Assembly: GCA_049325535.1 (NCBI GenBank)
Contig: JBMOKY010000001.1
Span: 29,002 to 93,001, forward strand
Length of the DNA: 64,000 nt
Direction: 5' to 3'
Source of the DNA: Patescibacteria group bacterium
GTDB lineage: Bacteria; Patescibacteriota; Patescibacteriia; UBA10025; JAHIVO01
Below are positions 5,958 through 58,655 of this stretch, piece by piece. Made by a program: the position numbers and the translations under genes. The notes beneath the pieces were generated by a model. It saw only the letters and a program-made list of their open reading frames with translations. It was not told the DNA's origin and did no database searches. Each line of letters starts with the position of its first letter. The first letter of the stretch is position 1.

Positions 5958-5984
5958 AACACCTCTTTACCGGGGTGTTTTTTG
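5958..5984 (+). terminator. Intrinsic terminator after the RRM gene
   Basis: AACACC-loop-GGTGTT followed by TTTTTT. Confidence 0.55.
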
Positions 5985-6178
5985 GTGGGGAGGCTAGAGG
6001 GATTTTGTCGCCTCGCTCCGCTCGTTGTCCTGGGCAGCGACGATCTGCCAGTGGCAGATCGTCGGCGTTCAGCTTCGCGTTTCGCGCTTGCTTTACTGCT
6101 GCCCGTTCGAATCCCTCTATCAATTCATCTTAATAGAAAAACCGTCACCATGTCTTCGACACGGTGCCGCTTTTTCTA

Positions 6179-6254: not shown

Positions 6255-6372
6255 ATGTTCAAACGGTGCTCCCGGTCCCATGTTCGATTATCATCAACCA
6301 CTTCACCTGCGCACACGTTTCTCATTTTTTTCGCCTGCCCATGGGCAAGCTTGGTGATAATTCGGAAATGGA

Positions 6373-45457: not shown

Positions 45458-45728
45458 CGTGATTGTCGAAAACCCCTTTTGAAAGTGGTTTTGGATACTT
45501 TCCGCAAAGATTTGTATCGTTCACCCGACATAAAGTCGAGGTTCACGATGCTTCATTATTTTCCTCACCTGCCCATGGGCAGGTTCGGAGCAATGATGAG
45601 AGTAAAAGCGCACCGTACCGAAGTGGAGGCCACGGGCGTCCCGTCCTTCGACAAGCTCATGACGGAATCTCCGCTGCGCTCCGAGAATCGAATCTCGCTT
45701 GGATTGTATTTCTCATAATTTTTCCTAA

Positions 45729-55681: not shown

Positions 55682-55796
55682 TTTAGTCGGGGTGACTAGA
55701 ATTGTTCGCCTCCGGCAGAAACCCACGATCTTCTCTGACGGTACTGTCGGGGAGAGCGAGCAAACAAACTGCCCGCAAAATTCGTAATGTTTAGAT

Positions 55797-55882: not shown

Positions 55883-56278
55883 TTATTTCTTTGTGCGGGG
55901 GAAGGCACCCCGGCGTCTGTCATACCGTTTTTCGTTGGTCTTGTACCCGTCATCAGATGACCAGCGAAGCCACAATCGTTTTTTAAATCCACCTTTGCGC
56001 ATCATATTTACTCTTTGGGCAGCCGCAACCTCACGGGTGGTTATCTTCTTTATTGATTTAATTTCCTCAATGACATCTATGACGTCGGCAATCTCACTGA
56101 CAAGTTCTGTACGAGAGGTGGCACGTTGCATACCACTCGCCTCTTCTTCAACTTTTTTGATGAGCTCTTGCTCGAATTTCTTTTTGGGCAGGACGCGCAC
56201 ATCATAATCAGCACCGGCGGCTTTGATGCGGCTTGGGATCCTGTCGCGAATGACTTTGTTGTAAAATATTTTTTTCAT
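55883..56278 (-). CDS. MazG-like all-alpha nucleoside-triphosphate pyrophosphohydrolase with a basic C-terminal tail
   Basis: KVIRDRIPSRI...ELIKKVEEE...EIADVIDVIEEI matches small MazG/HisE-like house-cleaning NTP-PPases. Confidence 0.6.
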   Translation of the reverse strand: MKKIFYNKVIRDRIPSRIKAAGADYDVRVLPKKKFEQELIKKVEEEASGMQRATSRTELVSEIADVIDVIEEIKSIKKITTREVAAAQRVNMMRKGGFKKRLWLRWSSDDGYKTNEKRYDRRRGAFPRTKK

Positions 56279-56403
56279 TCGCCTAATTGGAGAAAGGGTG
56301 GTGCCGAGTGCCAGAATCAGACCCCGTATGATTCCTCGTTTCACTCGTCATAACGGGGCAGGCTGGCGACGTACCAGATCATTTTCCAAATGTCTTTATC
56401 ATG

Positions 56404-56475
56404 TGCCGAGGGCCAGAATCGGACTGGCGACGCAAGGATTTTCAGTCCTTCGCTCTACCACTGAGCTACCTCGGC
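56404..56475 (-). tRNA. tRNA-Phe (anticodon GAA), unusual T-loop (TCCGATT)
   Basis: Reverse complement GCCGAGGTAGCTCAGTGGTAGAGCGAAGGACTGAAAATCCTTGCGTCGCCAGTCCGATTCTGGCCCTCGGCA. Confidence 0.6.
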
Positions 56476-56763
56476 TTGAAGAACCTCGGCACATGATAAA
56501 GAAAGTTATCAATGATTTTCAGTCCGGAGACCTGCCCCGCCATAGCTCACGAAGTGAGCGGTGCGGGGTCTACCACTGAGCTACCTCGGCGCGGGCCGTC
56601 CCCAGCATGAGTGAGTATTATTTTTTAAAGCCACTGGTGAGCGATCGAGTATAAGATCTTTCGCTTACGCTCAGGACGGCACCCGGGACCTCGTCATTAT
56701 CCTGTACTATACTCACTGCGTTTGCAAGTACAGGACGAGTCAGTGACGTTACCACCCCCAGAG

Positions 56764-56837
56764 TGGGCGACTCAGGAATCGAACCTGAGACCTCGTCATT
56801 ATCAGTGACGCGCTCTAACCATCTGAGCTAGTCGCCC
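56764..56837 (-). tRNA. tRNA-Ile (anticodon GAT), immediately downstream of the 16S rRNA
   Basis: Reverse complement GGGCGACTAGCTCAGATGGTTAGAGCGCGTCACTGATAATGACGAGGTCTCAGGTTCGATTCCTGAGTCGCCCA. Confidence 0.7.
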
Positions 56838-57136
56838 ACTCTGGGAGGGTATTGTGAAAGCGCTCCTGGTCCCGTATCAGGCGTAGCCATGGTACGGGAT
56901 AACCATCTGAGCTCGTCGCCCCAAAAAACAAACAAAAAACACAGCTATTATTGACTAGATTCTATCAGGTTATGACGAAATTGCAACGGCATAGCTGTGC
57001 TGCTTGGTGGAGGGGTCCCTTAACACCTGAAAAGCGATAAGAATTTGCCAGAGTTCCGTTATGTTCATCCCGCCATTGCTGGCGTAGATGGACGACCGTT
57101 TAATCTAAGATTTGCATCTTAGAAAAATTCTCCTTA

Positions 57137-58655
<1,519 letters not shown>

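Follow-up and report, generated by a model that had tools for sequence, protein, structure and literature searches.

The window analysed here, a 64,000-nucleotide (nt) stretch of contig JBMOKY010000001.1, comes from a Patescibacteria genome (CPR, short for candidate phyla radiation); its NrdD is 89% identical to that of L002, a metagenome-assembled genome (MAG) of a "Patescibacteria group bacterium". The analysis as a whole covers these 64 kb and a few dozen related loci, which are designated by L numbers. A bacterial 16S rRNA gene (58654-57138, minus strand) is followed in the window by tRNA-Ile, tRNA-Phe and protein-coding genes. A 23S rRNA gene does not come after the 16S rRNA gene and hence the rRNA genes appear unlinked; the same 16S-Ile-Phe layout without 23S is present in L084, L085, L088 and L089. 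The subject of this study is the disrupted architecture of the two tRNA loci downstream of the 16S rRNA gene.

An initial annotation of this region, made from the sequence alone, had described intact tRNA-Ile(GAT) and tRNA-Phe(GAA) genes flanked by partial copies of themselves, and every fragment and hairpin that it listed is present. The pieces are not scattered debris: within each locus they are collinear and make up a single outer gene. Both loci are nested ("Russian-doll") tRNA genes. Their outer copy occupies the ancestral place, after the 16S spacer in the case of Ile and ahead of a MazG-like gene in the case of Phe. Small palindromic modules with GC clamps interrupt its D, anticodon and T regions, and a single larger insert breaks it as well. 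This larger insert holds a complete, CCA-less copy of the same tRNA located between complementary leader and trailer sequences, and this inner copy is the sole intact tRNA. ARAGORN and Rfam call only two tRNA genes in the region, the inner tRNA-Ile(GAT) and tRNA-Phe(GAA), and an Rfam search at E ≤ 10 over the locus returned nothing besides three tRNAs and the end of the 16S rRNA. All features of the nested loci lie on the minus strand.

In the tRNA-Ile locus, nt 1-22 of the outer gene (GGGCGACGAGCTCAGATGGTTA, 56921-56900; 21 of 22 positions identical to the intact gene, E = 5e-5) directly follow the conserved end of the 16S-Ile spacer, as do the plain Ile gene of L084 and the outer Ile of L089. 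They are joined at position 21/22 to a D-loop hairpin with a perfect 7-bp stem (TCCCGTA...TACGGGA, 56899-56870), the arrangement reported initially as a 5' quarter of tRNA-Ile fused to a CCCGTA...TACGGG hairpin. A hairpin occupies the identical 21/22 site in the Ile gene of L089 (Kerfeldbacteria), and the CCCGTA...TACGGG termini are found again in L084, L085 and L086. The 3' strand of the D-stem plus nt 26 (GAGCGC, nt 22-26, 56865-56860) is collinear with the intact gene and precedes a 110-nt insert at 26/27 (56859-56750) that holds the inner gene. The inner tRNA-Ile(GAT) (56837-56764, called at 56837-56763; ARAGORN, Rfam 70.4 bits) is CCA-less and bordered by the stem arms CCCAGAGT (56845-56838) and CTCTGGG (56763-56757); a perfect 16-nt inverted repeat lengthens its acceptor stem. 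A homologous stem, CCCTGAGT/ACTCAGGG, surrounds the inner tRNA-Pro of L002 and L084, the consensus of both being CCC(A/T)GAGT/ACTC(T/A)GGG. Beyond the insert the outer gene resumes with nt 26-35 (ACGTCACTGA, 56749-56740), again collinear with the intact gene. A 40-nt hairpin (56739-56700, stem CCTGTACT/AGTACAGG) then separates anticodon nt 35 from nt 36, exactly where the initial annotation had placed it. Thereafter follow nt 36-48 (TAATGACGAGGTC, 56699-56687; 13/13 identical to the intact gene), a degenerate T region (56686-56646) with a hairpin at 56672-56647, and the 3' acceptor strand with A-CCA (ATCGCTCACCA, ATCGCTC-A-CCA, 56645-56635), which forms six of seven pairs with the outer 5' strand.

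The tRNA-Phe locus is organized similarly. Outer nt 1-22 (56590-56569), identical to the intact gene in 22 of 22 positions (E = 2e-7), are followed by a D-region hairpin (CCCCGC...GCGGGG, then CAGG; 56568-56535), in agreement with the 5' part and D-region insert described before. The sequence GCGGGGCAGG of this D region recurs after the tRNA-Cys hairpin of L003 and is complementary to CCTGCCCCG at 56362-56354. The 5' strand of the outer anticodon stem and its loop (CCGGACTGAAAATC, 56527-56514) precede the insert with the intact inner tRNA-Phe(GAA) (56475-56404, called at 56475-56403; ARAGORN, Rfam 69.3 bits), in which CCA is not encoded. The leader arm (56507-56484) is complementary to the 3' acceptor strand plus trailer and ends 8 nt ahead of the tRNA; the trailer arm, CATGATAAAGACATTT, spans 56403-56388. 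An inverted repeat around tRNA-Phe had been recognized and its extent given as 19 bp; leader arm and positions 56411-56388 in fact form a 24-nt inverted repeat with 92% complementarity (duplex z = -7.7). The outer gene then continues with nt 39-53 (TCTGGTACGTCGCCAG, 56378-56363), CCTG plus a 37-nt hairpin at 53/54 (CCCCGTTATGA...TCATACGGGG with the loop GAGTGAAACGAG; 56362-56322, hairpin 56358-56322) and nt 54-76 with an encoded CCA (TCTGATTCTGGCACTCGGCACCA, GGCACCA end, 56321-56299; 18/20 identical over nt 54-73). The 3' part with its CCA and hairpin is present as listed initially, but the hairpin lies between the 5' strand of the T-stem and the T-loop, preceded by CCTG, and not inside the T-loop. 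CCTG plus hairpin at the T-loop occurs likewise in the tRNA-Pro of L088. The outer 3' end adjoins the MazG-like gene, and both this place and the CCA are kept in L084. A mechanical call of an open reading frame (ORF) at 55883-56344 (minus strand), with a GTG start at 56344, overlaps the 3' end of the outer tRNA-Phe; the MazG-like gene (minus strand) most probably starts with the ATG at 56278 and then encodes 131 aa that are identical to a protein of a 1.15-Mb NCBI MAG contig.

Two further tRNA loci of the window are nested. In the tRNA-Gly(TCC) unit (51507-51198), outer nt 1-35 (51507-51474; 33/34 identical over the aligned nt 2-35) and nt 36-58 (51261-51239; 23/23 identical) are separated by a 212-nt insert (51473-51262) located exactly at 35/36. 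It carries the CCA-less inner tRNA-Gly(TCC) (51401-51331) on the stem GCCAAGGTA/TACCTTGGC. A hairpin (51238-51210) interrupts the outer gene once more ahead of its 3' end (51209-51198). The tRNA-Cys unit (45910-45624) comprises the outer 5' end (45910-45900), the hairpin CCCCGTCATGCGACGGGG (45899-45882), the CCA-less inner tRNA-Cys (45799-45728) within a 20-bp perfect inverted repeat (45822-45803 and 45727-45708) and the outer 3' end CGTGGCCTCCA (45634-45624). The Cys loci of L003 and L191 contain a hairpin homologous to that of the window with a compensatory change.

In RNAfold predictions the outer acceptor ends pair around the entire Ile unit (z = -4.7), the outer acceptor strands around the inner Phe cloverleaf (z = -6.3), and both the outer acceptor and the outer anticodon stems around the inner Gly cloverleaf (z = -6.9); the inner acceptor stems in the Phe, Ile and Gly folds are prolonged by leader/trailer pairing. 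A rival reading invokes introns or a split tRNA, the latter mentioned as a remote alternative in the initial annotation: hairpins and inner-gene segment would be removed at the RNA level and the outer pieces joined to a second functional tRNA. When the inserts were removed in silico, ARAGORN at a relaxed threshold called tRNA-Phe(GAA) and tRNA-Ile(GAT) cloverleaves; the outer copies have CCA, and, as in the multi-intron tRNAs of archaea, loops are where the inserts are located. Both reconstructed cloverleaves are nevertheless defective. The outer Phe has a G7·A66 mismatch and has lost a D-stem strand, the Ile T-arm is lost, and the Gly was not called. Split or spliced tRNAs were therefore rejected. 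The two 3-nt bulges and 4-bp helix of an archaeal-type intron are absent from the Ile 35/36 junction, where, judged by eye for this one junction, 9 nt are unpaired on the 5' and 4 on the 3' side, unlike a bulge-helix-bulge. Moreover, the host is bacterial, outer copies are more and more degraded among relatives, some of which have plain genes, and an intact copy is always present. A split or permuted arrangement likewise conflicts with the intact same-anticodon gene between the pieces and with their collinearity on one strand. We consider a second, RNA-joined tRNA extremely improbable.

The identity of the outer copy was derived from relatives; a genome scan with the neighbouring HD-domain gene as query did not find any. 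In L002, Gly(TCC) and Cys are plain genes without interruption that encode CCA, and the sequences on either side correspond to those around the window's outer copies; the Ile and Phe genes that follow the 16S rRNA gene of L088 are plain and encode CCA. Hence, the outer copy represents the ancestral gene in its ancestral place. The Gly(TCC) insert at 35/36 is shared by the window and L084 and missing, with exact boundaries, from L002; for Cys, L002 has a plain gene, and the window, L003 and L191 have a nested one. Such comparative presence and absence suggests mobility. Nested or partly duplicated tRNAs with hairpins were furthermore found for Pro in L002, Cys in L003, Arg and Lys in L006, Phe, Pro and Gly in L084, Phe in L085, Ile, Phe and Pro in L086, Pro in L088, and Ile and Phe in L089. 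Of the 41 tRNAs in the clade loci, 16 have a partial copy on the same strand at a distance of ≤350 nt, compared with 1 of 11 in unrelated loci. Breakpoints are shared among outer pieces (Gly 1-35 / 36-58; Ile 26/27 and 35/36). An assembly artefact is unlikely, since an independent Logan assembly is 100% identical to the window over the Gly unit and the architecture recurs across many independent assemblies.

At the same 35/36 junction as in the window, the Gly locus of L084 contains the right flank of the window's Gly insert with ~90% identity; it reads ...CCTTGGC GGGATAATCCGGGAT.CTCGCAACAAGATGGGCTC...CATCGTTGCGGGA / CAAGCTGTTG, and the outermost 3' end has CCA. The window-type Gly copy itself is broken by hairpins in L084, and upstream of it lies a new CCA-less copy on another stem (GCTAACACA/TGTGTTAGC), which indicates serial replacement. 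In the Pro locus of L084, the outermost 5' fragment carries the allele of the window's working Pro gene and the inner copy the allele of the L002 type. The outermost acceptor allele of Ile in L086 equals that of the plain gene of L088 and differs from the inner allele, and the outer and inner acceptor stems of Phe in L089 differ while each is internally complementary. An inner copy that works in one genome is therefore a dead shell in another. These sequence comparisons show that nesting recurs and can repeat inside an earlier inner copy.

The hairpin modules of the window have perfect GC-rich stems of 6-8 bp and form families. The hairpin CCCCGCCATACGGCGGGG is identical in L003 (Cys) and L084 (Phe), and the Cys hairpin of the window differs from it by one compensatory pair. 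A CCTGTAC(T)/(A)GTACAGG stem is common to the 35/36 insert of the window's Ile and the Phe copies of L082, L083 and L084. The 12-mer loop motif of the window's Phe hairpin given above recurs in Phe of L082 and L083 and in Lys of L006. A metagenome scan with CCCCGYCATRCGRCGGGG yielded at least 120 loci; among the 120 matches listed, the hairpin lies ≤300 nt from a tRNA in ten. Eight of these loci were read closely (Glu, Ser, Pro, Cys, Arg twice, Gln and Leu); in each, the hairpin is located in or beside a disrupted copy and an intact gene of the same isotype is near. In L182, one of the two remaining tRNA-near loci, the hairpin occurs without a tRNA copy. The metagenomic hairpins occur in both orientations, which favours a DNA-level element over an RNA motif. 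Often a single module or a pair of them stands at T-loop position 57/58; in one case the hairpin lies within another hairpin's loop. Many matches of the 18-mer hairpin were in high-GC contigs without a nearby tRNA, probably from unrelated organisms. The first interpretation, hairpin insertion combined with tRNA decay, has held in so far as hairpin families exist at other tRNA loci of the window and in other genomes. It missed the nesting, the rule on CCA, the leader/trailer stem and the link to a nuclease. Since the hairpins recur elsewhere, an element family is, on the initial annotation's own criterion, supported over simple decay, even though the tRNA finders call only the two intact genes.

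The 18-mer hairpin was also observed as the terminal inverted repeats of short intergenic elements resembling miniature inverted-repeat transposable elements (MITEs), GACCCCGTCATGCGACGGGGTGACAA...TTGTCACCCCGTCGCATGACGGGGTC, in the metagenome contigs L093, L108, L112, L121, L122, L142, L170, L189 and L194 (GC 0.34-0.40). Some of these elements have internal tandem repeats, and in L180 such elements flank a GIY-YIG gene.

These distributions bear on a purely local origin, in which template switching, fold-back synthesis or break repair at tRNA inverted repeats generated partial duplications, palindromic filler and leader/trailer repeats in the absence of any mobile element, one copy then being selected while the rest decays. 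In the window, the inner copies hardly differ from the outer ones. Each event has stems of its own; these often extend the acceptor stem exactly, the discriminator pairing with nt -1, a product that acceptor-primed fold-back would yield. In Lys of L006 and Phe of L082 the flanking leader/trailer is duplicated together with the tRNA part as in a tandem duplication, and the L006 Lys locus contains an inverted copy of its own anticodon arm. Local mutation is at odds, however, with identical or near-identical modules in different tRNAs, in distant genomes and in both orientations, with breakpoints that repeat at 35/36 and 57/58, with inner alleles unlike the outer ones in L084, L086 and L089, with the exact presence/absence difference among close relatives, and with a nuclease ORF within equivalent inserts (see below). 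On balance a local origin is judged unlikely.

The second regularity concerns CCA. None of the four nested inner tRNAs of the window (Ile, Phe, Gly-TCC and Cys) encodes CCA, compared with all seven of the other tRNAs. In the window and eight related loci, a leader/trailer duplex with z ≤ -2 accompanies 15 of 18 CCA-less but 3 of 23 CCA-encoding tRNAs (association of CCA-less status with leader/trailer pairing: Fisher p = 7.5e-6; Mann-Whitney p = 3.7e-5). In Phe, the leader is complementary to the 3' acceptor strand plus trailer and lies 8-9 nt ahead of the tRNA; the trailer sequence varies among the window, L082, L084, L085 and L086, and the pairing is kept in all five. RNase Z is blocked where CCA is encoded, and stable hairpins make exonucleases stall. 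We infer that RNase P and RNase Z, perhaps after RNase III, probably free the inner tRNA from its stem and from the hairpin-rich 3' context, and that CCA is then put on enzymatically; such endonucleolytic release and enzymatic addition would explain why the inner copies are CCA-less. The stem would additionally insulate the inner tRNA from the competing identical outer sequences.

The constant spacer and the maintained pairing of the Phe leader and trailer in five genomes with differing sequences, together with the correlation between stem and CCA-less status, would also be expected if the whole architecture were selected at the RNA level, with outer shell, hairpins and stem serving as a precursor scaffold for folding, processing and stability of the inner tRNA in the 16S co-transcript. 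Entire units fold far better than shuffled sequence, with the shell around the cloverleaf, and the outer acceptor strands remain complementary in L089 and L086. Against such a scaffold, plain genes suffice in close relatives, the surviving arms vary and outer parts decay (the Gly T-stem, the Ile T-arm and the Phe D-stem are lost), the number and position of the hairpins vary among orthologous loci, and one hairpin occurs in both orientations, unlike an RNA motif. Selection for the complete architecture thus seems quite unlikely. The leader/trailer stem by itself may well have a function, as a secondary adaptation, which is compatible with a selfish-element origin of the nests.

A candidate for the agent came from more distant contigs. 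In L107 (Gln) and L176 (Arg), ORFs of 89 and 75 aa contain a GIY-YIG domain (PF01541; E = 2e-11 and 3e-14, respectively) and are placed between the hairpin-disrupted outer copy and the intact tRNA. The family of ~85-aa GIY-YIG proteins is plentiful in Patescibacteria. Three homologues were picked without regard to tRNA context, and all three share the layout (L210 and L212, Ser-CGA; L213, Leu-CAA): an outer 5' part ending at anticodon nt 35, two hairpin modules, a piece from nt 36, the GIY-YIG ORF and an intact tRNA of the same isotype. The intact tRNA in L210 is stem-flanked and CCA-less. The GIY-YIG endonuclease SegB of phage T4 is a precedent for a homing endonuclease in a tRNA cluster, where it drives inheritance of the tRNA region and segmental amplification (PMC2330249, PMC13096335).

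We weigh the nested loci of the window as decayed, nuclease-less remnants of a selfish insertion system that targets tRNA genes and supplies a replacement tRNA, a reading to which we assign a probability of roughly 60%. The driver would be selfish DNA aimed at tRNA gene loops. The complete element, as seen in other Patescibacteria contigs, would combine hairpin modules and the ~85-aa GIY-YIG gene with a replacement tRNA; anticodon position 35/36 is one example of its insertion site. Owing to the copy supplied, the breaking of an essential, probably single-copy, tRNA gene would be survivable. In the window, the nuclease gene would have been lost and hairpins, stems and tRNAs would remain.

Several observations weigh against this proposal. 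A GIY-YIG ORF or remnant was not found in the window or the related clade loci, either by tblastn or with a family hidden Markov model on six-frame translations, and the nuclease link therefore rests on the more distant Patescibacteria contigs. The near-identity of inner and outer copies in the window would also fit local duplication instead of import. The covariation of the Phe stem across genomes points to RNA-level selection, for which an explanation by selfish DNA alone has no need, and the stem sequences vary between events and hence are not conserved element termini. Generic CCCG...CGGG hairpins are no more frequent in the window than in random sequence (9 observed versus 8.3 expected); the case thus rests on shared specific sequences and their placement. 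Target-site duplications were not seen at the inserts of the window and not convincingly elsewhere; the CG after T-loop modules may just as well belong to the palindrome. Finally, the proposal would require the replacement copy to escape a nuclease that recognizes tRNA genes.

A further-reaching version is conceivable but doubtful: a self-propagating "tRNA-replacement" element in which a small GIY-YIG nuclease and its palindromic modules cut tRNA genes at the anticodon or T loop and copy in a cassette with a cleavage-immune, CCA-less, stem-flanked tRNA. Through successive invasions, Russian-doll genes would be built, tRNA alleles would turn over throughout the Patescibacteria, and shells full of hairpins, like those of the window, would be left behind.

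Transfer RNA genes are also the targets of classical integrative elements, and the initial annotation had considered integration or excision scars. Integrases that target tRNA genes prefer certain sublocations, including the anticodon loop and the T-loop, and classical elements of this type supply only the 3' part of the gene, are kilobases long and encode an integrase. The insertion system proposed here resembles them in its tRNA target, in the anticodon- and T-loop breakpoints, in incoming DNA that restores what was lost, and in the partial copies left behind. It differs in that a whole tRNA is contained within ~110-210 nt, that 5' fragments are also left and that no integrase is present. 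Were the loci att sites of phages or islands whose interiors have since been deleted, the preferred breakpoints and the arrays of 3' partial copies after the intact Phe in L082, L084 and L085 would be accounted for. The upstream 5' fragments, the complete inner copies, the short inserts lacking any ORF, the several separate insertions within a single 76-nt gene and the hairpins common to several isotypes would not, and a tRNA 3' direct repeat bounding an integrase island was not found. Integrase scars are accordingly very improbable.

Similar to T4 SegB, a small GIY-YIG gene is the immediate neighbour of an intact tRNA and of its broken copy in L107, L176, L210, L212 and L213. SegB acts in the selfish inheritance of a tRNA region and in nuclease-driven segmental duplication of full-length tRNAs (PMC2330249, PMC13096335). 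In contrast to the phage system, the loci described here belong to a cellular genome, and the resident gene is split from within and replaced by a nested copy instead of being tandemly amplified. The insert comes with palindromic modules, the ~85-aa proteins comprise the catalytic domain and nothing else, and the loci of the window retain no nuclease gene.

Disrupted tRNA genes of archaea, among them multiple-intron, split and tri-split genes, transposing introns and disruption driven by mobile elements, are similar in having non-canonical insertions in the D, anticodon and T regions, related inserts in different tRNAs, and a tRNA 5' fragment left beside a new gene copy after the arrival of a mobile element (PMC3293823; PMC4090602; PMC10714607). 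In archaea, the splicing endonuclease removes the inserts at bulge-helix-bulge motifs and the interrupted gene stays functional. In our case the host is bacterial, the one junction examined lacks the motif, the interrupted copy is dead and the embedded duplicate functions. Resemblance to intervening sequences excised by RNase III lies in the positions of the inserts at the D-, anticodon- and T-loops and at the tip of 16S helix 44; the interrupted tRNA copies look non-functional.

Like repetitive extragenic palindromic (REP) and MITE elements and the rRNA insertions of CPR bacteria (PMC11270868), the modules are short, GC-clamped, multi-copy palindromes at helix tips of structural RNA genes. 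As in MITEs, palindromes or terminal inverted repeats occur in related copies at various sites and in various genomes. Unlike REP and MITE elements, the modules gather in dead tRNA copies, where their loop positions agree among isotypes, and a replacement tRNA travels with them. We know of no transposase for these palindromic modules; their association with GIY-YIG ORFs is suggestive of a mobilizing enzyme. The study on CPR rRNA genes covers short non-intron insertions and does not mention tRNA (PMC11270868). No description of nested tRNA genes or of tRNA-loop hairpin insertions in CPR bacteria was found in the searchable literature, the coverage of which is incomplete, and a layout with a gene within a dead gene of the same tRNA is apparently undescribed.

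If correct, the replacement reading would reveal a new route by which selfish DNA can enter an essential RNA gene that is unable to splice, namely by bringing a spare copy, and it would account for why tRNA genes with and without an encoded CCA are patchily mixed in these small genomes. The replacement of tRNA alleles via lateral transfer is a further implication. As a caution, the annotation of tRNAs in Patescibacteria hides many dead copies, and "att sites" recognized there from partial copies may not mark islands. The loci also offer testable substrates for the abundant, uncharacterised family of ~85-aa GIY-YIG proteins and natural cases of a tRNA expressed from within a tRNA-like scaffold.

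A GC-clamped hairpin extension, CCCCCGCC...GGCGGGGG, is located at the tip of helix 44 of the 16S rRNA (57216-57258, minus). It is ~20-27 nt longer than its counterparts in L085 and L089 and resembles the hairpins of the tRNA shells in style.

Among the other tRNA genes of the window, tRNA-His (6253-6179, minus) is followed 175 nt downstream by a tRNA-His 3' fragment ending in CCA (5983-6004, minus), which precedes a terminator-like hairpin. An antisense copy of the T-arm of tRNA-His (TAGAGGGATTCGAAC, 6105-6119, minus) and a perfect 12-bp hairpin (6038-6064) also lie downstream of the gene; these remains possibly represent an older, more decayed nest. The tRNA-Pro gene (55873-55797, minus) is plain and CCA-encoding, unlike the fully nested Pro genes of L002 and L084. 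Two weak look-alikes of its 3' end, CTCGCTCTCCCCGACAG and AGTCACCCCGACTAA, are located downstream (55690-55760, minus).

Plain CCA-encoding tRNAs are directly preceded by a conserved, structured leader of ~105 nt, present in the window at 13765-13656, 6362-6254 and 45592-45459 (all minus) and elsewhere at L002:6768-6877, L002:13800-13909, L003:8080-8188, L089:3660-3767 and L085:10897-11006. It consists of a hairpin ACCGAG...CGAGG, the purine-rich sequence GAGGAAAAGGAGAAAUG, a helix formed over a long range by AAAUG.GUGC/GCACCAUUU and an internal hairpin; it ends with CGACGC at tRNA position +1. Compensatory changes were found in 22 of 28 predicted pairs. The motif had no match in Rfam at E ≤ 10 and may be a new tRNA-leader RNA motif of the clade. 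In L089 it stands ahead of the outer, not the inner, tRNA-Phe. The palindrome TGCCCATGGGCA(GG) forms the first hairpin of this leader upstream of tRNA-His (6337-6346) and tRNA-Gly(GCC) (45571-45580), and is also present upstream of the outer tRNA-Phe of the Kerfeldbacteria locus (L089:3676-3685).

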